64,000 bases of DNA, taken from an uncultured Thermoplasmata archaeon. GTDB taxonomy: Archaea > Thermoplasmatota > Thermoplasmata > UBA10834. Shown here piece by piece: positions 37,106 to 50,193 of the stretch. The stretch is from contig CAVRDX010000001.1 of assembly GCA_963719945.1 (NCBI GenBank), forward strand, positions 288,001 through 352,000, given 5' to 3'. The translations under genes were made by a program, and so were the position numbers. Each line of letters begins with the position of its first letter. Position 1 is the stretch's first letter. The notes beneath the pieces are model-generated. The model ran no database searches, had not been told where the DNA came from, and worked only from the letters and a program-made list of their open reading frames with translations.

Positions 37106-37822
37106 TTGGCCGATGCACTATCAATCGCCGACTTGGAGCGAATGAGAGTCGGTGAACCATTCTTCAGCAGAAAGAATCGAGTGTTCAGAGTGAATCTTGA
37201 AGGAAGGATATGCGTGGCCAAGGTCTCTGGACCAGGACGGGAGAACCTGATTGCACACGAATATGAAGTCCTGTGCAAATGCAGACGGTATGGAGTACCT
37301 GTTCCTGAGCCTATCATGCAATTGAAGGATGCATTCATCATGAGCGCTGTTGACGGAGATAATGCGTCCGAGGTCTTTGATTCATGTTTCGAAATCTCGA
37401 GTAATAGTGCAGGTGATACGAAATTGGGCCAACTTGCCGATCATGTCGCATCTTGGCTCTACTCTTTTCATAAAGCGTTCGATTTCGAATATATCAGAGG
37501 CGATTCGATACTTCGCAATTTCATCGAAGTTCCAGGAGGACTGGTCGGGATTGATCTCGAGGAGTCCCATGAAGGCGACCCGATTGAAGATCTGGGGCAA
37601 GTATGCGCGTACATCATAGCCACAAGACCAATGTTCATTGATGCGAAGTTCGATTTCGCAAGGGCAATAGTTGCTGAGTATGAGGATAGAAGCAAGAGTG
37701 ACATTAGGTTGAAACTACCACGTTCTGTGTCTTGTGCGCTGAGGTATTATGGTGGGTTCAGGAGTGATTGCGCGCTGATGTGCGAATGGGCGGACCGGAT
37801 AGCCTCCTGGAGCAAATTCTAG
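37106..37822 (+). CDS. Protein kinase-like phosphotransferase (Bud32/RIO/APH superfamily)
   Basis: VAK, E..VL, GVPVPEP, RGDSILRNF, IDLEE, EDLG. Confidence 0.75.
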   Translation: MADALSIADLERMRVGEPFFSRKNRVFRVNLEGRICVAKVSGPGRENLIAHEYEVLCKCRRYGVPVPEPIMQLKDAFIMSAVDGDNASEVFDSCFEISSNSAGDTKLGQLADHVASWLYSFHKAFDFEYIRGDSILRNFIEVPGGLVGIDLEESHEGDPIEDLGQVCAYIIATRPMFIDAKFDFARAIVAEYEDRSKSDIRLKLPRSVSCALRYYGGFRSDCALMCEWADRIASWSKF

Positions 37823-38568
37823 ATGTGTATGATCGAATCGATCTCATAGCATCTGGAGAAATATATGATGGCAATAGCCAGCGCAATGGTTGATATCACC
37901 AGCAAGATATCCCATGCAGTCATTCTGAGTGGCTTGAGCAATGTCCGTTTCGGGTACGCGCCGAATCCCCTGCCCGTCATGGATGCCGCAAGAGTGTTGA
38001 CCTTGGACATCGCTGAGATCAGCATCGGCATGGTTGTATATCTTGCAGCTCTGAAGATACCCTTGATGCTCTTGTCCAATTTCATGCCTCTGGTGACCTG
38101 AGCTTCGCGAACTGCACTCAGTTCCATCTGGAAGACAGGGACGAATCTCATAGCCAATGCTGGTAGGTAGGCGAACCTGTAGGGGGCTCCCGAACTTATG
38201 AGCGCAGAGGAGAAATCAGAGGCTCTTGTCGTAGCGACGAATATCCATGACATCGTGATCAAAGCCATGAATCTTCCCGCTATCAACACTCCTGTTTCTA
38301 TTCCTCCCCAATTGACATCAAGGAACAGTATTCTCAGGGCGACTTCTCCGGAATGGTTGAATATCACTTGAGCGAGGAAAATAGCGAATGCGAACCACAT
38401 GACCCCTTTTGTGAAGGTGCTTCTGGCATTTGTGAATACCTTGGCCAATATCACCACAGCCACAAACATAACCATGTACGCAGGATCTGAGATCTGGAAG
38501 ACCATGACCGATAGCACTATCAGGGTGAGGAATTTGGCCAAAGGATTGACGGCGTGAGGTCTACCCAT
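37819..38568 (-). CDS. ecfT: ECF transporter T component
   Basis: NPLAK, ALAMRFVP, REAQVTRG, ASMTGRGF coupling motifs. Confidence 0.93.
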   Translation of the reverse strand: MGRPHAVNPLAKFLTLIVLSVMVFQISDPAYMVMFVAVVILAKVFTNARSTFTKGVMWFAFAIFLAQVIFNHSGEVALRILFLDVNWGGIETGVLIAGRFMALITMSWIFVATTRASDFSSALISSGAPYRFAYLPALAMRFVPVFQMELSAVREAQVTRGMKLDKSIKGIFRAARYTTMPMLISAMSKVNTLAASMTGRGFGAYPKRTLLKPLRMTAWDILLVISTIALAIAIIYFSRCYEIDSIIHI

Positions 38569-40033
38569 CCATCTTCCCTCCGATTGGCAGGAGTTGCTTC
38601 CATGACTCTTCGGATATTTCTTTTACGGCTCCATCTGCAACTGTCTTTCCGTTCTTCATGATCAGAACGTCTGTGCAGAATCCTCGTGCGAACGCGATGT
38701 CGTGGGTCACGATTATTATTGTCTTGCCAGATCTCTGAAGATTGGCAAGCAATTCCATGATCTTGGACACATTATCCTCGTCCTGTCCTGCGAACGGTTC
38801 GTCCAACAGGAGTATGCTCGGACCATGGGCAGATGCGGATCTGATGTTCACCCTTCTCTTCTGTCCGAAGCTGAGGCATTGAGGATGGACGTATCTTCTG
38901 ACTCCTTCGGCGCCCTCAAAAAACTCAATTGAGTTCTCCGCCTCTTGCATCGATGTGCCAAAGTTCTGAGGTCCGAACTTGATCTCCTTCTCGACAGTCT
39001 TCTCGAACATCTGGTGATTCGGATTCTGGAAGACCAATCCGATGTCTCTCCCCAGTACCCATGGCTCGACAGGGTTATTCTTGGTTATACGATGATTCTT
39101 GAATTCTATCGAACCTGAGGATACCTTGATTAGCCCCATGATATGTTTCAGCAGAGTCGTCTTCCCTGAGCCGTTCTCTCCCATAAGCGCGACCACTGCT
39201 CCATCCGTCACCGTGAATTCGACATCTTCCAGTATTCTTTTCTCCCCAATCTGATAATTGAGGCCATTCACCGTAAGAATGGTTCCATTCCTTGGGACGA
39301 CCTCTGGATAAATGCGCGCCTCTTTTAGTGATCTGCAGATATCCGCGAACTTCAGGTCTTCAGCAGTGCAATCATGCGATATTTTGCCCCTATCCATAAC
39401 GATGATCCGAGTCGCCATATCCATGAATTCATGGACTCGGTGCTCCACGACAACTACTGTCATCTTCCTTACGGTTCTGAGCTTCTCGATGGCTAATACG
39501 ACTTCAGCAACGGACTTCGGGTCAAGGCTTGATGTCGGCTCATCAAGTATCAATATCTTCGGATCGAGCGCGAGCATGGACGCTATGGCTACCTTCTGCT
39601 TCTCCCCTCCCGATAGAGTGGATATGTCTCGATCTATCAGGTGAGAAGCATTGACTGATTCCAGCGTTTCGTGGACTTTCTGCCGGATATCTTCTTCCCT
39701 GAATCTAAAATTCTCAAGGCCGAAGGCAATTTCTTCTTCGACCGTTTCGGTGCAGAACTGGGTCTCTGGATCCTGTTGCACCATTGCTATGAATCGTGCA
39801 GTATCAATTGGATCGACCAGCTCATCTCCATCTATTCTGATCGAGCCGGATAGTTCTGCGGGTATGATCTCAGGTATGAATCTGCATACGGCCTGCATGG
39901 CAGTCGATTTCCCAGATGCGCTATTGCCAGCTAGCACGACGAACTCGCCGTGTCCTATTGAGAATGATATATCTTGGACGGCAAGTATTGACCTATTCTC
40001 ATACCTGACGCACAGGTGCGATACTTCGAGCAT
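38561..40033 (-). CDS. ECF transporter fused A-A' ATPase
   Basis: Two cassettes: GNSASGKS/QDPETQF/LSGGE/LDEP and GENGSGKT/FQNP/LSFGQ/LDEP. Confidence 0.93.
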   Translation of the reverse strand: MLEVSHLCVRYENRSILAVQDISFSIGHGEFVVLAGNSASGKSTAMQAVCRFIPEIIPAELSGSIRIDGDELVDPIDTARFIAMVQQDPETQFCTETVEEEIAFGLENFRFREEDIRQKVHETLESVNASHLIDRDISTLSGGEKQKVAIASMLALDPKILILDEPTSSLDPKSVAEVVLAIEKLRTVRKMTVVVVEHRVHEFMDMATRIIVMDRGKISHDCTAEDLKFADICRSLKEARIYPEVVPRNGTILTVNGLNYQIGEKRILEDVEFTVTDGAVVALMGENGSGKTTLLKHIMGLIKVSSGSIEFKNHRITKNNPVEPWVLGRDIGLVFQNPNHQMFEKTVEKEIKFGPQNFGTSMQEAENSIEFFEGAEGVRRYVHPQCLSFGQKRRVNIRSASAHGPSILLLDEPFAGQDEDNVSKIMELLANLQRSGKTIIIVTHDIAFARGFCTDVLIMKNGKTVADGAVKEISEESWKQLLPIGGKMDG

Positions 40034-41116
40034 CTACCTCACTTCGATCTTGATGACGTCCTCGACCCAATACGCACCTTCATATTCAGCAGCTACCAGT
40101 GTATAGATGTCATCTTCCACGGTCAGTATTAGGCGGTCATCCGACATGACGCTCACAAATGAAAAAACCACTGTGTAGCCATCACTTCCCCAAATGACCA
40201 CATCTGAAGCATCATCCCCAGGAGACGATTCTTCTATTATGATATTGACGGGCACACCTGTATAGTTCGTGGGTGGTACATATGTCACTACGCCTTTGAG
40301 TTCGGCGTTGATAGTGATTTCCTGGTTCTCGAAGTCACCGTACCGGAAATAATACGGATTCTGCACATCGCCGGTTATTTCAACGGTATCTGAACCTGGA
40401 AGGACGAAGACGAACATGTAATAATACACTCCTCCGATGGCGAAAACTGCCAGGAACGCAACGACGACCGACATCGCTGCGATGGCCTTCTTCTTCTTTC
40501 CCTTCTGCTCCAGGTACGCCTTCTCATCGAACTCGGGTGAATCCACCATCATCGGTTTTCGTGCACGGACGATTCCCGATGTCTCTAATGTGTCCAGCAT
40601 CTGGAGCACGAGCCATCCGCCGAATATCATCCCTGATGCATATGCCAACATACACAGCATGGCAATTAGTATGATTGGGACTCCGGAGAAGAAGAATATC
40701 TGGAAGACCACGACATTGGCTGCCGCGGATAGTCCTCCTGCGAATGTGTACGCAAAGATGTTCCGATCGGATTTGGTGCTGTCTTTGAACATCACTATGT
40801 CGGGAATGATGCCTTGGATCACAGAGACCACGACTATTACGATCCCGTGAGTGCTCCCCATGAATAATTCGATTATACCCTTGACGAGTCCCGTGACGGT
40901 GCCTGCCCCCTTCTTTCTCGTAAGGGCTATTGCCAGCATGATCCAGATGACATGCAATCCTGAAAGGAACTGCCCCGCACCGAAAGGCACGCCAACGATA
41001 TGGTTCACCATGTTCCCCAGGTAGCCCACATATGTCGAAAGCACCCCCCCCAATGCGGACAGAAGAGCTATCGTCACAAGATCTTTCGTGCTGAAGTGAT
41101 ACTTAATGTCGGTCAC
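40034..41116 (-). CDS. ECF S component (YkoE-like) fused to extracellular molybdopterin-binding-like domain
   Basis: FSTKDLVTIALLSALGG...RKKGAG, about 6 TM, one extra TM, then YTGVPV...SDGY...GAYWVEDVIKIEV; GTG overlaps upstream TGA. Confidence 0.8.
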   Translation of the reverse strand: MTDIKYHFSTKDLVTIALLSALGGVLSTYVGYLGNMVNHIVGVPFGAGQFLSGLHVIWIMLAIALTRKKGAGTVTGLVKGIIELFMGSTHGIVIVVVSVIQGIIPDIVMFKDSTKSDRNIFAYTFAGGLSAAANVVVFQIFFFSGVPIILIAMLCMLAYASGMIFGGWLVLQMLDTLETSGIVRARKPMMVDSPEFDEKAYLEQKGKKKKAIAAMSVVVAFLAVFAIGGVYYYMFVFVLPGSDTVEITGDVQNPYYFRYGDFENQEITINAELKGVVTYVPPTNYTGVPVNIIIEESSPGDDASDVVIWGSDGYTVVFSFVSVMSDDRLILTVEDDIYTLVAAEYEGAYWVEDVIKIEVR

Positions 41117-42603
41117 GCCCCGTCCAATATCGTTATGCTGACTACATTGCTGACCCATCTAGCGCCAGCAGAGGCGTTGATATCGTATCCCTGTCCCTCG
41201 TACGATGTCAATTCGCAGTCGGAGTTACTGTAGAGGCCATCGTCCGGCAGCATCGCCAGCCTCGGTCCGTCCTGCCATTCGGGTGCACTGAGATCATCGT
41301 ACGCTATCGCGATCACCATGAAACCCTGCAATTCTAGCCATGTCTCGCTCGGGTAGACGTTCAGATACCCGAAATCTTGATAGTAGGTGTCAATGGATTC
41401 GATCCTGAGCAAATCCCCTTCCTCCATGCCGCCGACTTGCGCCAGCAGGTCGGAGATCAATATGCCCGTATAGTCTCCTTGACCGCCGATGTTCCCGTAT
41501 GCGTTCTCATATGACGAGTACTTGTGAATCTGGGTCATCTGTCCTAGATCCTCATAGGTAAGGTTGACGACCGTGCCGTCCTTTCCCGTTATCGATATGA
41601 AATCTCCCATCAGTCCAAAGTCGATATCGGTCTTTTCATATGAGATGGATGAAGACGAAACTTCGACAGACACATAGTGGTGGGTGCCGTTGTCAAGGGA
41701 TGCGCCTGCACCGCCCGTTATAATGAACGCTGTGTTCTCTATCTTCTGGTAGTGGAACGCGTGCACATGTCCGGTGAACACCGCGTCTACCTCATCTTCA
41801 AGGACGAACTCCTGGAATCTCTCACACGAATCCAGGTCGAGCGTGTGATTATCTGTGAATGGGTCGTAGCTCGGTGCGTGAGTCACCACGACCTTCCTCT
41901 CCGCATTCTTGAAAATCTCTCTCATCCATTGAATTTCCTCCTCCGATATGTTCAAATCGGACGAGTCCACAATCGCGAATGTTATCCCCGAGTATGCGAA
42001 CGAATAAGACATCGGAGCGAACCTTTTCTGATAATCGATGCCCTCATCGCTCTTGATGTCGTGGTTTCCAGGGGTCGTGTAGATTGGGATCGGGGATACA
42101 TCGAAAGCTGCTTCCAAAGCATCGAATTCCTTTGGCAATCCAGATGGCGTCATGTCTCCACAGTGTATCACGAATTCGTAATCCGCTATGTCGCTGAGGA
42201 TGGTTTCCAGCATCGAATTGAATCCTTGGCTGTCCCCGAGAACAACGAACTTGAACTCGGACTTCTCATCCGTAGTCAGTTCGTATCTATCCCTGCCTTT
42301 CTCTGCCATGAACGAGACGTTCGTTCCATCTCGTGATATTGTATCATCATAGTCTATGATCTGGGCATCTGGATGGCAGTTAGTGAGAATGACCTCTCCT
42401 GAAAAACCATGGAGTGACAGGGTCACTTCAGGGGAGAGGCATCTAAAAATGATCTTGTTGGAGTTTTCAGAAAGCAAGGTGCCTCCAGTGATCTCTGCTC
42501 CTTCATCTGCACGCAGGAACACAGTCATCGATGCCGATAGCAGACAAGCTATGGCTATCGAGCCGATCACCAGGGCAATCTTGCTTCTCTTTGAGTTTAT
42601 CAT
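41113..42603 (-). CDS. Secreted/anchored calcineurin-like metallophosphoesterase with C-terminal molybdopterin-binding-like domain
   Basis: Signal helix; GDSQ, GDMT, GNHD, THAP, GHVH; YTGILISDLL...DTY...GPRLAML...ARWVSNVVSITI. Confidence 0.85.
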   Translation of the reverse strand: MINSKRSKIALVIGSIAIACLLSASMTVFLRADEGAEITGGTLLSENSNKIIFRCLSPEVTLSLHGFSGEVILTNCHPDAQIIDYDDTISRDGTNVSFMAEKGRDRYELTTDEKSEFKFVVLGDSQGFNSMLETILSDIADYEFVIHCGDMTPSGLPKEFDALEAAFDVSPIPIYTTPGNHDIKSDEGIDYQKRFAPMSYSFAYSGITFAIVDSSDLNISEEEIQWMREIFKNAERKVVVTHAPSYDPFTDNHTLDLDSCERFQEFVLEDEVDAVFTGHVHAFHYQKIENTAFIITGGAGASLDNGTHHYVSVEVSSSSISYEKTDIDFGLMGDFISITGKDGTVVNLTYEDLGQMTQIHKYSSYENAYGNIGGQGDYTGILISDLLAQVGGMEEGDLLRIESIDTYYQDFGYLNVYPSETWLELQGFMVIAIAYDDLSAPEWQDGPRLAMLPDDGLYSNSDCELTSYEGQGYDINASAGARWVSNVVSITILDGA

Positions 42604-42611
42604 GCTTCGAC

Positions 42612-44187
42612 TCAGATTGGCAGGTTCTCGAGGTCTATGTCCACCACGTTGCTGATTTTCATCGAGCCCGGCAGGAACTCGTTCACGAGCCTCAGAGGCG
42701 CCATGTCTGTGAGCATCTCCCAGTCAAGCATGAACGCGAGAACGAGAGTATCGTTGAACGCCGCCGTTGCCGAATCGATCGTCACATCGTACCATCGGAT
42801 GCCGTGAGCACTATGTCGTAGCCTTCGTCGGCCAATGTGCTGTTCAGCTCGTAGTGGCTCTCGTCCGTTCCATCCATCACTGCAACCAGGAGCCACAGTG
42901 GCAGACCTGCGTAGGTGTGCGCTACTTCCTCACTATCGGTGTAATTGTAGTACACTGCGTGCACTCCACCGTAGTTGGTGTATGTGAAGTTCTTCGCGTG
43001 GAGTCCCGAGTAGTATGTTGCGACATATGTCTCTGCAGTTATCACCGCGCTGGTCAATCCCGTCAGGTTCAGAGTCCAGGTCGGGACATCATGCATGTCG
43101 ACGATCGAGATATTCTCGATGGACTTGATCCTCTGACCTGATGTCAGACCATCACCGACGAGCTTGAGCGGGAATTCGTCATCTGAAAGCAGCTCTCCGT
43201 CGAGCCTATTCGCGACGATCAGGTGTCGTTCCTTGCTACTTGCAGCGAGGTGAATGGACTTGTCGGCTCAATAGCCATCCGATGCCATCACCGTCACATT
43301 GTAGCCCGCCTGTGCAAGCAAATCGTTGAATAGGTAGTCGGTGGCAGGTCCATCGGCACCATCGACTGCGGAGACGAGGGTCCAGAGTGCGACACCTGTG
43401 TACTCATGGGTTCCAGTCTCGTTCTCGAAGGTCCATGATGCAGCATGGTATTCGCAGGAGGCAAGGGATTCGAAAGTCTGCCTGTCGATCTGAAGGTCTG
43501 TCACGCCACTCAGGTTGAGTGTCCAATCCTTCATGAATGGAAGGATGGTGATCTCTTCGACGTATTTCGCCCAGAATTGTCCATCGGTTATGGGGGCTGA
43601 CTCGTCAACAATGGCTATGCGCAGGTCCATATCTTCCAGGGGTAATCCGTCCTGCGCATAGGCCACGATCATCGTGAAATCACCTTCTCCGAGGAGCGAT
43701 CCATCCTCAGGATCGTAGTGTGCGAAAGTGCCGTCCTCGACCTGGCTTGAACTATATGCCATCGTGTAGCCGTCGGTGGAGACAACCTCAAGGCTATAGT
43801 CCGTGCCTGAGTACAACAGATCGACGAAATCTGCAAGGGGTATTCCCGTGAATTCAAAGGGTCCTTCTATGGTCCCAGTGGTCTTCTTGAAGCTACCCGA
43901 AGCTGTGGTTGCGGTCATGTCCTTCAGCTCCTCCATCGTAAGGTTGATTGAGGCCTGGTCCTTTGTGACGGTGAGCACCGTGGTGCCTTCGGGCGTCTCA
44001 TCGTCGTCCGTATTCTGAGTGAGCATGTACCCCAATGGTACTGCGACCAAAAGCACGATGATCACTGCAAGAGCGATCAGCTTGGTGGTCGAACCCATGC
44101 CGGCCTTCTTTGGGGCTGCGATGCTTTCCTTGCCTTCTCATTGATTTCATTGGTGCCCGTTTCCGGGGCTTTCGAAGAATCTGACAT
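42612..44187 (-). pseudogene. Membrane-anchored protein with three tandem molybdopterin-binding-like (SUOX/MsrP fold) domains; frameshifted here (sequencing error or decay)
   Basis: Reconstructed by hand: ATG 44187 with GGAGG, shift before 44098, TGA 43268 with shifted FTSLQVARNDT segment, shift near 42790; each repeat has F/Y(T/A)G.., DGY, (P)L(R/K)(L/I) and terminal K..I. Confidence 0.8.
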
Positions 44188-44201: not shown

Positions 44202-44225
44202 CGATATGTCTATATGAGCATACCG
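44202..44225. promoter_or_regulatory. ModE-box-like palindromic operator of the ECF operon
   Basis: CGATATGT-CTATATGA-GCATACCG (dyad CGRTATG-N10-CATAYCG) between the minus-strand TATA-like TTTTTATT (44241-44248) and the SD of ATG 44187. Confidence 0.55.
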
Positions 44226-45244: not shown

Positions 45245-46002
45245 GTGTCACCAAACAAGGCGATTGTGAGAGCGCCCGGGTCGAGGTATTCGGACTGTCT
45301 GTCGTCGCATCCATTGAAGCGAACCATCGACCTGGTCAATGCACGCAATCAGCATGCTCGCTACCGTGCAACTCTCTCGGAATTGGGCATGGAAGTAATC
45401 TGTCTCGAAATGGATGACGAACATCCCGATTCTTGCTTTGTCGAAGATGTGGCAATTGTCCACAATGGCAAGGCATTGATGTGCAGGACCGCAAAAGAGA
45501 GCCGACAGGGAGAGGAAGGTCCAGTGCGGGAGACACTATCTCATCACGTGTCGATCGGATTCGCAGCAGCTCCTGCGACAATCGAGGGTGGCGACGTCGT
45601 CCATCTTGAAGACTGACTGATTTGCGGTGTCACACAGAGAACGAATGATGATGGAGCGAGACAGATGGGTGAATGGCTCGAGACCAAGGTTGATTTGGTT
45701 CGAGATCCGAAGATCATGCATCTCAAGAGTTTCGTCAGCTCCTTGGGAACGAACCAGCTTGTTGGTCGCGGAAAAATACTCTGAGCACGATGTTTTCGAC
45801 GGACTTGACTGTCCTGGTGGTACCAAACGAGGAATGGTATGGCTCAAACTTGATTGCCATCGATGATTCAGTAATCATGTCGAAAGGGTACCCACGCACC
45901 GAAGCCATTCTGAAATCAAATGGGTTCAGGGTCACAGCGTTGGATATGAGTGAATTCCCTAAATGCGACGGGGCTCTCACATGCCTATCGATCCTCTTCT
46001 AG
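45245..46002 (+). pseudogene. Dimethylarginine dimethylaminohydrolase / amidinotransferase family, disrupted
   Basis: HPDSCFVED, EGGDV, RTN, HLKS, DGALTCLS; in-frame TGA at 45614-45616 and two frameshifts near 45750 and 45808. Confidence 0.85.
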
Positions 46003-47957: not shown

Positions 47958-48086
47958 GGACGTATGAACACTGACCCCATAGATTACATTTATCCATCCA
48001 GGCATTACTTGATTTGCATCCGATTCCCTTTCGATGCATCAATTCTTTAAACCTTCTCGATTACCCTCTTAACCTCGTATTCCAAT

Positions 48087-48143
48087 CTCCCCTCGGGACG
48101 GAGCGATGCTTTGGTGGAGTGGCGGTCCTGTCCCGAGTGGGGG
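48087..48143 (+). promoter_or_regulatory. Stem-loop in the 5' leader of the corrinoid/MtmB operon occluding the SD
   Basis: ctcgggacgg (48092-48101) pairs with ctgtcccgag (48128-48137); ctccc (48087-48091) pairs with SD-like ggggg (48139-48143); TATA-like ctttaaac at about 48044-48051. Confidence 0.5.
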
Positions 48144-48151
48144 TAGCTATT

Positions 48152-48799
48152 GTGAGTGCTGAGAAGATTCTGGAGCAGCTGCGCGGAGCCGTGCTGAAGT
48201 ACGATTCCGACGCAGCAGTGTCTGCTGCAAAGGCCGTCATCCACGCGAAGATGGATCCTCTGCAGGCGATTGAGAAAGGACTGGTTCCTGCAATACATGA
48301 TGTGGGTGAAAAGTTCGAGAAGATGGAGATATACCTCCCTGAGCTAATGCTCGCAGGGGACGCCATGAAGTCTGCTCTCGCCCTGCTTCTGCCGCTCGTA
48401 CCGAAGGGCGAGAAGACCTCCAAGGCAACCGTTGTTATCGGCACGGTCCAGGGGGATGTCCATGAGATTGGCAAGAACATCGTTTCTAGCATGCTTATGG
48501 CGGGTGGCTTCGAAGTCATCGACCTTGGCGTGAACGTCAAGACTTCTAGCTTCGTCGACGAGGCCAAGGCAAGAGGCGCCAAGATCATCGGCGCATCAGC
48601 CCTAATGTCCAGCACGATCGGATCGCAGAAGGATATCGTCGATTATCTGAGTGCGTCAGGGGACCGCAGAAAATTCACCGTTCTGATTGGAGGAGGCCCG
48701 ACCACTCAGGAATGGTCTGATGAGATAGGGGCCGATGGTTGGGGCAAGAATGCTGTGCATGCGGTCAAGCTTGCGACCAAAGCGGCCAAAGGGAGGTGA
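48152..48799 (+). CDS. Methyltransferase cognate corrinoid protein (MtmC/MtbC-like)
   Basis: Cap domain VGEKFEKMEIYLPELM, GTVQGDVHEIGKN (DxHxxG), SALMS, IGGGP, EIGADG. Confidence 0.95.
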   Translation: MSAEKILEQLRGAVLKYDSDAAVSAAKAVIHAKMDPLQAIEKGLVPAIHDVGEKFEKMEIYLPELMLAGDAMKSALALLLPLVPKGEKTSKATVVIGTVQGDVHEIGKNIVSSMLMAGGFEVIDLGVNVKTSSFVDEAKARGAKIIGASALMSSTIGSQKDIVDYLSASGDRRKFTVLIGGGPTTQEWSDEIGADGWGKNAVHAVKLATKAAKGR

Positions 48800-48804
48800 T
48801 TCGA

Positions 48805-50193
48805 GTGGTCCAGATACTAGACGTGATGCAGAAGGCGCTCGAGGGCAAGCCGATGAGCGAGACCGACTACCAGCTGAAATCCTTCGCGGCTAAGGTGAAT
48901 GCGAAGGTGAAGGAGTACGATATCCACTTCGACAGGAACACTCCGATACCCGACGATCCTACGCTCGCAGATGATGCATTCCAGGCTGCTGTCGACATTG
49001 TCGTCGAGGTGGGGGCATACTGCACCAATACGAACCGGGTAATATCCTATACCGAGAACGAAGTCAAAGAGGCTCTCAGGTTCGCACCGTCAGAAATAGA
49101 ATTCGGCGAGGGAAAGGATCGAAAAAAGCTACTGCCGAGGAGTGTGGGGGACAAGAACCCTCCATGGTGTCTCCTGGGTGCCGGCGGAGGCGCGTGCTCG
49201 AGCGAGCAGTCATTCCTCGCCCTTGTTGAGGGATACGCTGAGATACCCGAAGCGAATGCGATAACCACTCCAGCGCTCACAAAGGTGGGAGGAATGAGGA
49301 TCAGGCCTGCATCACCTCTCGAAGTCCTTGGAGCCCAGAGGAACGCGGTTCTGTTCAGAGAAGCCTGCAACCGTGTCGGTCGTCAGGGTATGCCCGTGAT
49401 GAACACGCTCTCCACTGCCGAGTCTGACATCGCCCTTGCCGGCGCGCTGCATCCGAAGTACGGCCTGCGTCAATCTGATGGCTACATGATCTGCTGCATG
49501 GATCCGATGAAGGTCGATTTCTCGAGGCTGAACAAGGCTACGGTGGCCCTTGGACTCGGCGGGCCTATCGGAATGTGCTTCGGCCCGATGATGGGGGGCT
49601 ATGCCGGGGGACCTGAAGGCACGGCCATATCGAACATAGCTCACCACATGATGGGGATACTGACATATCAGGCGAGCTGGCTTTTGCCATTCCCGCTTCA
49701 TCTCAGATATGTGTCAAGCAGCTGTCGGGAGCTCCTATGGTTGATCAGCCTATCTGGTCAGGCGATCAGCAGGAACACGCATCTTCTATCCGTCAATCTG
49801 AATTACACCTCTGCCGGTCCATCGACGCTGATGTGTCTGCTAGAGACTTCAGCATCGGTGACCGCTGCGGTGACTTCTGGATTGCACATCGAGTCACTGG
49901 GTGTGGCATCCAACAAGGAGGAGGACAGGACCACTCCGGTCGAGCCGCGGATATCGGCAGAGGTGGGGCACGCGGTAGCTGGTATGAGCCTGGCCGATGC
50001 GAACGAGCTGGTCAAGAAATTGGTCAGGGGATATGAGGACAAGCTTCAGACCCCTCCATTGGGGAAGATGCTCTTCGAAGCATGGGATGTAGAAAAGCGC
50101 AGACCCAGCAAGGAGTATATCGCGGTGTTGAAGGAGTATAGGAAGAAGATGAAGGGTTTGGGGATTGGAGTCAGTGGGGGTCCTTGGGTCTGA
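48805..50193 (+). CDS. Monomethylamine methyltransferase (MtmB) family protein lacking pyrrolysine
   Basis: IPDDPTLAD..F.A, GAYCTNTNRVI, EAC..VGRQGMPV, MKVD, GGYAGGPEG, AGPST, EPRISAEV, PPLGK; uninterrupted frame; SD GGAGGTGA. Confidence 0.9.
   Translation: MVQILDVMQKALEGKPMSETDYQLKSFAAKVNAKVKEYDIHFDRNTPIPDDPTLADDAFQAAVDIVVEVGAYCTNTNRVISYTENEVKEALRFAPSEIEFGEGKDRKKLLPRSVGDKNPPWCLLGAGGGACSSEQSFLALVEGYAEIPEANAITTPALTKVGGMRIRPASPLEVLGAQRNAVLFREACNRVGRQGMPVMNTLSTAESDIALAGALHPKYGLRQSDGYMICCMDPMKVDFSRLNKATVALGLGGPIGMCFGPMMGGYAGGPEGTAISNIAHHMMGILTYQASWLLPFPLHLRYVSSSCRELLWLISLSGQAISRNTHLLSVNLNYTSAGPSTLMCLLETSASVTAAVTSGLHIESLGVASNKEEDRTTPVEPRISAEVGHAVAGMSLADANELVKKLVRGYEDKLQTPPLGKMLFEAWDVEKRRPSKEYIAVLKEYRKKMKGLGIGVSGGPWV

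Follow-up and report, generated by a model that had tools for sequence, protein, structure and literature searches.

The operon at positions 37819-44187 of the 64,000-nucleotide stretch of DNA analysed here (the window) encodes a dedicated group I ECF importer, which probably salvages a tungsten (or molybdenum) pterin cofactor, already loaded with metal, from its surroundings, in place of de novo synthesis or as a back-up to it. It is a strong candidate, at the stage of prediction, for a cofactor uptake route of a kind not previously described in prokaryotes. The operon and moaA-E-C-B-moeA have complementary distributions, and a shared regulation links the operon to moa, tup/wtp and AOR genes. 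The literature searched, the coverage of which was incomplete, contained no account of this system or of its operator.

Layout of the operon and its SUOX/PruR-fold repeats

The five genes lie on the minus strand in the order gene 1, phosphoesterase, S component, A-A' ATPase and T component (Table 1), and their mapped ends bear out the overlapping or abutting junctions of the initial annotation. The stop of gene 1 (42614-42612) is followed after 8 nt by the phosphoesterase ATG at 42603. The phosphoesterase stop overlaps the probable GTG start of the S component at 41116, the S stop abuts the ATPase ATG at 40033, and the ATPase and T genes overlap by 8 nt. From GTG 41116 the S component is 360 aa long, a length matching its homologues; the longest ORF call begins at 41158. 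In a profile search the operon matched PF00149, PF09819, ABC/ECF ATPase (twice) and PF02361, as expected from the annotated metallophosphoesterase, S component, A-A' ATPase and T component. The S gene, a dedicated T gene and the A/A' gene stand together in one operon, the arrangement that defines group I ECF systems, and this order is kept in relatives. Also as annotated, no twin-Arg motif was found in the anchored proteins, which have single N-terminal anchors. The phosphoesterase is missing or truncated in three genomes (G017, G051 and G142).

Table 1. Features of the operon and its surroundings (window positions)
Feature	Position	Strand	Remarks
Cytoplasmic APH-like small-molecule kinase, convergent with the operon	37106..37822	+	catalytic K, E, DxxxxN and DxE conserved
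ECF T component	37819..38568	-	PF02361, 2.8e-26
Fused A-A' ECF ATPase	38561..40033	-	TIGR04520/TIGR04521 above cut-off
YkoE-fold ECF S component with extra transmembrane helix and outward SUOX/PruR-fold repeat (~40381-40037)	40034..41116	-	5EDL, Z 23.1
Anchored calcineurin-like metallophosphoesterase with C-terminal repeat (~41526-41116)	41113..42603	-	GDSQG, GD, GNHD, H and GHVH motifs present
Gene 1, membrane-anchored surface protein with three Cys-less SUOX/PruR-fold repeats	42612..44187	-	disrupted in the assembly
Gene 1 repeats	A ~43906-43412; B ~43441-42965; C ~42967-42615	-	
Palindromic operator, consensus GATATGCT-N6-AGCATATC	44203..44224		between a TATA-like box (~44248-44241) and the ribosome-binding site
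DMSO-reductase-family (bis-MGD) enzyme, the only one of the genome	56322..58265	+	possible client; outside the operon, no operator site

The S component has the six-helix ECF fold and superimposes on YkoE with an rmsd of 2.2 Å over 184 residues; ThiT, RibU and BioY give Z 10-13. YkoE E77 and Q95 are kept as E97 and Q115, while W49, Y46 and D131 align to His, Ala/Ser and Gln in an HMM sequence alignment.

Five homologous repeats were found across the operon by iterated HMM searches. The SUOX fold that had been claimed for them is supported by a profile match to SorA (E 1e-11) and by structural comparison of the S repeat (Z 14.8 and rmsd 2.1 Å over 118 residues to SorA; Z 13.4 to PruR) and of repeat A (Z 15.7 to PruR, 15.4 to chicken sulfite oxidase); repeats B and C and that of the phosphoesterase are assigned to it by HMM homology. 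The statement that most repeats lack the Mo-ligating Cys proves too weak, since an alignment with PF00174 proteins of relatives that do carry the Cys shows none at this column in any of the five. Repeat B has a conserved Cys (CEYH), which sits about 8 residues upstream of the column. Repeat A retains the LR and WxK motifs (R/K in 28/28, K/R in 27/28). Arg194 and Lys207 of MsrP probably have a role in phosphate binding. The DGY Tyr is kept in all repeats, without exception in the S repeat (69/69) and in repeat A (28/28). The terminal Trp is found in the S (68/69), phosphoesterase and A repeats and is absent from B and C. At the level of motifs, these two residues appear to match the Tyr/Trp pterin sandwich of PruR (PMC11194511). 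Neither a PW motif at the Cys position nor linkage to a DcpA-type sensor gene was seen for these repeats and loci.

Operon, families and fold stand as first annotated, but gene 1 does not have an intact reading frame, which had gone unreported. The anchor and three repeats are there; the in-frame part is the ORF 44098-43268, with the anchor and repeat A. The orthologue in G005, G010 and G006 is one ORF of 523-690 aa, and compared with it gene 1 carries four indels and one stop (+2 nt at ~44134; TGA at 43270-43268; +1 at ~43257; -1 at 43221; -1 at 42791). The indels at 42791 and 44133 are absent from contigs of ~90%-identical relatives. A search for sequencing runs of this strain found none, the best one sharing 0.10 of the words, and listed no run with RNA. 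Among ~250 other orthologues, about 4-5 are disrupted in the same assembly, including an H+-pyrophosphatase-like gene and the neighbouring DDAH gene. Since gene 1 is no more diverged than the genes next to it, its lesions are recent or assembly errors. Programmed recoding of its TGA codons was ruled out, because the breaks are indels and a stop missing in relatives. In this genome gene 1 may supply repeat A only.

Association with tungsten and molybdenum genes

The initial annotation had made its reading depend on an association with Mo/W genes, and this is found in gene complement, in a common operator and in bacterial riboswitches. In a census of 221 genomes of the class Thermoplasmata (MAGs 80-99% complete, with counts inflated by kinship among genomes), 38 carry the operon. 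Tungsten-type AOR enzymes occur in all 38, and the operon in 0/103 AOR-less genomes. Intact moaC is absent from 49 AOR-bearing genomes; this operon is present in 34 of them and a second cluster with Cys-less domains in 11. Either system occurs in 5 of the 69 AOR-bearing genomes with intact moaC and in none of the AOR-less genomes. Of the 38 operon genomes, 32 lack both moaC and moeA and 5 have an intact moeA, which is found in 23/25 close relatives lacking the operon. The contrast between operon and moa/moe genes is repeated within three genera (g2, g38, g44) and one family (f2), and two genomes with the operon, G178 and G018, show a moa operon in decay. Since moa genes are organised as a single operon, they are not lost independently of one another. 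General genome erosion was rejected as the cause of moa loss since thiC (38/38) and mptA (35/38) are retained; thiamine and folate-type pterin synthesis are not lost in association with the operon. Other families without moa genes have related Cys-less domains within their AOR operons. In the second cluster, the membrane protein does not align to the S profile, and an Atlas match (0.79) to an ECF S family gives a lead only.

In the assembly of this genome, which is 87% complete, none of moaA, moaC, moaE, moaB/moeA and tupA/modA was found, in line with the gaps in moaA, moaC and moaE for which a check had been proposed; mptA was not found either. The genome encodes three full AORs, which carry the EYE and CxxCxxxC motifs, together with one DMSOR-family enzyme and one MobA candidate. 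The bis-MGD enzyme, earlier named as a possible client, is still one, but the AORs are the best-supported clients.

The operator matrix was trained only on leaders of the ECF operon, with a background of 0.05 sites per 10 kb. The site before gene 1 scores 24.6 bits; the genome has three sites of at least 20 bits, and 3 Mb of simulated background has none. In relatives, matches lie directly before moaA in 10/11 moaA-led operons, before tupA/wtpA in 7/7 cases and before ferredoxin-AOR in 4/4 (one weak). Three bacterial homologous operons are preceded by the Moco/Tuco riboswitch RF01055 (69-76 bits, cut-off 36). P3 is missing in both RF01055 alignments examined, and an RF01055-type variant without P3 has been linked to tungsten (PMC2408646). 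Rfam finds no riboswitch in the window. A scan for sigma-70 promoters and terminators gave chance-level results, the sigma-70 model not being applicable to archaea.

The operator and the neighbouring kinase, which lies just outside the region first reported, had both been overlooked. An orthologue of the kinase is present in 35/38 operon genomes, and in G225 the T gene and the kinase stand at a contig end. In bacteria it adjoins the homologous operon in one case and is absent from most such loci. The kinase has no sequence match in the PDB.

A proposed salvage route and its alternatives

The anchored Cys-less repeats would catch and shield the released cofactor via its pterin ring, non-catalytically. 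The surface phosphoesterase may trim a nucleotide or phosphate and the neighbouring kinase may restore the phosphate; these are the two weakest steps, each with a little under an even chance of being right. The S-fused repeat would pass the cofactor to the S pocket, with A-A' and T powering uptake, and it would then be loaded into the three full-length AORs and, through the retained MobA candidate, the bis-MGD enzyme. A repressor at the palindrome would silence the operon under ample cofactor supply. Only one Cys-less SUOX protein has been characterised, PruR, and it binds small pterins other than Moco, in a pocket considered too short for Moco itself (PMC11194511); by analogy, this pocket length and pterin preference would count against Moco as the ligand of the repeats. 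Moco is sensitive to oxygen once free (PMC7849362), which leaves a supply of cofactor from the environment unproven. Further points against the route are the lack or truncation of the phosphoesterase in the three genomes named above, the rarity of the kinase at bacterial loci and the disruption of gene 1.

The import of Moco/Wco or a precursor, as first suggested, is supported by the Mo/W gene association, and the precursor is the less likely half because moeA is lost too. Were the cargo a metal-free intermediate (MPT, dephospho-MPT or cPMP) that receives its metal after uptake, the same regulon and distribution would be predicted, and repeats without a metal-ligating Cys would suit it; G018 keeps moaB and moeA and has lost moaA and moaE, and a MoaE-family gene is kept in 13/38 operon genomes. 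However, moeA was not found in 32/38 and moaE in 25/38, and the cells have no known way to import or insert the metal: tupA/modA was not found in G000 or G020, and PF12849 matches that might have been retained TupA were rejected, as the 13 loci examined are phosphate pst operons (pstS). Metal-free cargo is therefore unlikely, and with moeA and the importers of tungstate lost, it is more likely that the cofactor enters with its metal. An importer of bare tungstate or molybdate would share its operator with tupA/wtpA and explain riboswitch placement as for oxyanion transporters, but the S pocket retains the ring-binding Glu and Gln of YkoE, there would be no use for a phosphoesterase and a kinase, and most carriers can neither make MPT nor insert metal, so that an imported oxyanion would be useless. 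Its chance is very slight.

A PruR-like importer of unconjugated or folate-type pterins (neopterin, monapterin) for one-carbon-carrier synthesis would fit the tie of PruR with sulfite oxidases as best structural match of repeat A, its binding of pterins of this type (PMC11194511) and the lack of mptA in this assembly. Such a role is improbable, since mptA is retained in most operon genomes and both regulation and distribution track moa, tup and AOR genes. An importer of thiamine or HMP like YkoEDC, with the phosphoesterase acting on TPP, draws on YkoE as the nearest solved S component and on the two aligned residues. Against it are the three changed contacts, thiC in every carrier, and the riboswitch of the homologues, which is for Moco; no TPP riboswitch was found at the operon. 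This is the least probable of the alternatives, with hardly any chance.

Salvage of the metal-loaded cofactor may extend further. It is slightly favoured that many anaerobic archaea and bacteria are tungsten-cofactor auxotrophs, which use this ECF system, its surface capture domains and a cycle of dephosphorylation and rephosphorylation to import the intact metal-pterin as they would a vitamin. The operon would belong, in Thermoplasmata, to an undescribed repressor regulon (GATATGCT-N6-AGCATATC) together with moa, tup/wtp, AOR and a cofactor-free aldehyde dehydrogenase, and the second Cys-less-domain system would do the same job in other moa-less families.

Comparison with known systems

For a long time it was held that a cell makes the Moco that it uses (PMC7849362). 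Among prokaryotic Mo/W importers, a 2018 survey lists only carriers of the bare oxyanion (PMC6147048). It also left unexplained about 300 prokaryotes that have 'orphan' molybdoenzymes but no pathway for the cofactor, most of them lacking Mo transporters (PMC6147048). Caenorhabditis elegans reuses mature protein-bound dietary Moco without biosynthetic enzymes, but this is an animal, the transporter was unknown in that paper, and E. coli was not an intermediate (PMC7849362). The operon offers a testable answer to the orphan enzymes, namely cofactor cross-feeding in anoxic communities. If true, it would be the first transporter defined for the intact cofactor, and would add small domains with a possible stabilising effect on this labile molecule as well as an archaeal operator that controls a tungsten-cofactor regulon.

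Salvage by dephosphorylation, import and rephosphorylation is known from Haemophilus NadN/PnuC/NadR for NAD, and from thiamine and riboflavin. Here too a surface phosphoesterase, an importer and a cytoplasmic kinase are co-inherited, but protein families and cofactor are different, and the chemistry is a prediction. PruR (PDB 7KOU, 7KP2, 7RKB; PMC11194511) is likewise a small, exported, non-enzymatic SUOX fold without the Mo-ligating Cys; by motif, its Tyr appears to correspond to the conserved Tyr of the repeats and its Trp to the terminal Trp of three of the five. Unlike them, it signals to DcpA-type sensors and binds non-Moco pterins, whereas the present repeats are membrane-tethered, tandem, fused to transport parts and without the PW motif. 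The sulfite oxidase family (SorA 2BLF, SoxC 2XTS, MsrP/YedY 1XDQ) has the same fold (Z 11-15), but the repeats have no metal-ligating Cys, Tat signal, dimerisation domain or heme domain. YkoEDC, the group I ECF thiamine importer of Bacillus subtilis (PDB 5EDL; PMC5037267), also has S, fused A-A' and T in one operon, the same S fold with the pyrimidine-binding Glu and Gln, and, as in bacterial homologues of this operon, riboswitch control by the cognate cofactor. Compared with YkoEDC, the present system has three of five thiamine contacts changed, adds a transmembrane helix, a fused outward SUOX-fold domain, an anchored multi-repeat protein, a phosphoesterase and a kinase, and belongs to a Mo/W regulon instead of being under a THI box.

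Architecture of the operon and fold of its repeats

The initial annotation described a minus-strand ECF importer operon of five genes with tight junctions, which stands, and took its first gene, for a surface protein, as intact, which it is not in this assembly (source genome 87% complete, in 4 contigs). The other four of the five genes (phosphoesterase, S, A-A' ATPase and T) are intact. Compared with three close relatives, in which gene 1 is a single ORF, the assembled gene shows 2 extra nt at ~44134, a TGA at 43270-43268, and further frameshifts (+1 at ~43257, -1 at 43221 and -1 at 42791); the anchor and repeat A remain readable in an in-frame ORF that starts at 44098. A DDAH/amidinotransferase-like gene (45245-46000, plus strand), unbroken in relatives (251 aa), carries a stop (45614-45616) and indels (near 45750-45811), and it forms a local lesion cluster with gene 1. 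Directly upstream of the operon, a heliorhodopsin gene (PF18761; 44317-45105, minus strand) is intact; this adjacency is seen only in the closest relatives, and in genome G051 heliorhodopsin lies near the operon's other end. A corrinoid protein and an MtmB-family methyltransferase are encoded at 48014-50193 (plus strand), the latter in an open frame with no in-frame TAG, and thus apparently pyrrolysine-free.

Features of the importer system in the window, the source genome (G000) and relatives
Feature	Position	Strand	Remarks
Five-gene operon	44187-37819	minus	tight junctions between genes
Metallophosphoesterase, membrane-anchored, 496 aa		minus	PF00149
S component, 360 aa	probable start GTG 41116	minus	PF09819
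Fused A-A' ECF ATPase		minus	TIGR04520/TIGR04521 over cut-off
T component		minus	PF02361
APH-like kinase gene	37106-37822		convergent with operon; catalytic motifs intact
Palindromic operator	44203-44224		leader of gene 1
Operator, NAD-type aldehyde dehydrogenase	G000 C3:182209 (L192:4210)		
Operator, ferredoxin-AOR	G000 C1:720380 (L193:6381)		
Second cluster	L122:6330-13253 (G045); also L121, L124, L126, L127, L129		12 genomes, four families

An iterated HMM recovers the proposed set of five homologous repeats, of which A, B and C lie in gene 1 and the other two in the 3' part of the phosphoesterase gene and of the S-component gene; among relatives, gene 1 has 2 to 7 repeats (348-1101 aa; loci L028, L029 and L138). 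Their proposed SUOX fold was borne out by structure match for the S repeat and repeat A, and rests on sequence homology for B and C, which the structure search of the gene-1 model barely probed. In a model of the S fusion (pLDDT 85.7), residues 21-213 match the thiamine S component YkoE (Z 23.1) and residues 256-374 match SorA (Z 14.8), SoxC (Z 14.4) and PruR (Z 13.4). In a model of the intact gene-1 product of the close relative G005 (pLDDT 85.4), repeat A matches PruR (Z 15.7) and sulfite oxidase (Z 15.4) equally well. The profile of the repeats detects both SorA (E 1e-11) and PruR (E 6e-7).

Most repeats had been said to lack the Cys ligand; in alignment with Cys-bearing PF00174 proteins of relatives, all five lack it at the metal-ligand column. 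The S repeat and repeat A always have the Tyr of DGY, and the terminal Trp of the S repeat is kept in 68/69. In repeat A, the positions of Arg189 and Lys207 are basic in 28/28 and 27/28, respectively; we take their counterparts in SUOX enzymes to bind the phosphate of MPT. Because the S repeat mostly has Glu where repeat A has Lys207, these residues would fit a ligand that is phosphorylated at gene 1 and dephosphorylated at the S component. Every ecto-domain is preceded by a transmembrane helix whose N-side is basic, and the Tat motif is absent from the ecto-domain proteins of the operon, as first noticed. Such sequence features suggest that the ecto-domains probably face outward and are exported empty.

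Distribution of the importer and of cofactor biosynthesis

As to the gaps at moaA, moaC and moaE that the initial annotation proposed to look for, neither these genes nor moaB/moeA or tupA/modA were found in the source genome (87% complete), which encodes three full-length tungsten-type enzymes (AORs), one DMSOR-family enzyme (56322) and one MobA candidate. A short AOR-like gene (G000 C3:~274376-275200; open frame of 409 aa, weak AFOR_C match) is not among the three. A census of the class covered 221 genomes, of which 38 carry the operon; all 38 are AOR-positive. Intact moaC occurs in 4/38 carriers versus 21/25 genomes of the same families that lack the operon, and for intact moeA the figures are 5/38 and 23/25; related genomes are not independent data points in these counts, and the moa genes make up one operon. 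The anticipated association with Mo/W genes thus holds. This contrast is seen again within three genera (g2, g38, g44) and within family f2, and therefore does not reflect one ancestral event. Incompleteness or general gene loss as its cause is ruled out by thiC (38/38 carriers) and mptA (35/38). Two importer-bearing genomes have a decaying moa operon: in one it is full of stops (L135, G178:C4), and in the other, the single-contig G018, moaA, moaE and half of moaC are gone (L134). The importer also occurs in some prototrophs (G001, G013, G051, G136 and the bacterium G230).

Intact moaC is missing from 49 AOR-positive genomes. The operon is present in 34 of them and, at a contig end, in one more; 11 carry a second cluster, which places related Cys-less domains and a membrane protein at a ferredoxin-AOR operon. 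Neither system was found in the 103 AOR-less genomes. The second cluster combines genes for ferredoxin and an AOR of ~790 aa with those for an unassigned membrane protein of ~230 aa and for one or two small SUOX-like proteins that lack the Cys; a radical SAM gene often comes next. Its hosts lack moaC, moaE and moeA in 11/12 cases, and it is possibly an independent route of cofactor uptake or delivery.

Of the 38 operon genomes, 35 have an orthologue of the APH-like kinase; in two of the other three, the contig breaks off within the T gene or at it. Outside the carriers, the orthologue occurs in a single genome, next to the T gene at a contig end. Family f16 has it in 17/18 carriers versus 0/12 non-carriers. 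The phosphoesterase varies more: it is truncated or missing in G017, G051 and G142, and an NPP-type phosphodiesterase takes its place in several other loci. A kinase paralogue (~35% identity; G000 C1:262957-263688, outside the window) occurs throughout the family, with or without the operon.

Operator and riboswitches

A palindrome, GATATGCT-N6-AGCATATC, is common to the gene-1 leaders, flanked by a TATA-like box on one side and the ribosome-binding site on the other. With a matrix trained on these leaders only and a cut-off of 20 bits, three sites were found in the source genome, and 3 Mb of simulated background yielded no site. The three precede the importer operon, a ferredoxin-AOR operon (by about 230 nt) and a gene for an NAD-type aldehyde dehydrogenase, plausibly a cofactor-free substitute. 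In relatives, the operator stands directly before moaA in 10 of the 11 operons that begin with moaA, ahead of tupA or wtpA in 7/7 cases and before ferredoxin-AOR in 4/4 (one only 13.2 bits), and also before two-repeat genes of moa-less families; G018 retains it before its moa remnant (L134). In bacteria, an RF01055 riboswitch lies upstream of three homologous operons, and both riboswitch alignments listed (for two of the three operons) lack P3. The form without P3 is associated with tungsten (PMC2408646). One riboswitch-bearing bacterium has an AOR, and moaC and moeA were not found in it.

Cargo and relation to known transporters

The simplest reading of the observed architecture, distribution and regulation is vitamin-style salvage of a W/Mo-pterin cofactor. 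The tethered repeats would capture the cofactor, a nucleotide or phosphate would be trimmed off, and the ECF transporter would take up the product, which would then be rephosphorylated and loaded into AORs and, via MobA, into the bis-MGD enzyme. A cargo from the Moco pathway in one form or another is very likely, and the metal-loaded cofactor is the probable one. Because moeA and the oxyanion importers were lost too, the metal should arrive already bound, and a metal-free intermediate appears improbable. We consider a non-Moco pterin quite unlikely and an oxyanion slightly more so. Thiamine is the least credible cargo: the S pocket keeps Glu77 and Gln95 of YkoE, but Tyr46, Trp49 and Asp131 are altered and the regulation is not of the thiamine type. 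At another locus (L092:8904-14942), three paralogous S components, a PF00174 protein and a T component lie beside an SBP_bac_11 (ModA-like) gene.

No paper describing the operon was found in a literature search. About 300 prokaryotes with orphan molybdoenzymes have been left unexplained (PMC6147048), and PMC7849362 shows Moco uptake for C. elegans only. New here are the census with its controls, the operator in archaea, the second cluster and the disruption of gene 1. The repeats share the fold of SUOX enzymes but are not such enzymes, nor are they PruR proper. Like YkoEDC, the operon encodes a group I ECF transporter and probably works in the same way, whereas its pocket residues and regulation are not those of a thiamine importer; it thus belongs to a known ECF class, with a cargo that is probably new.
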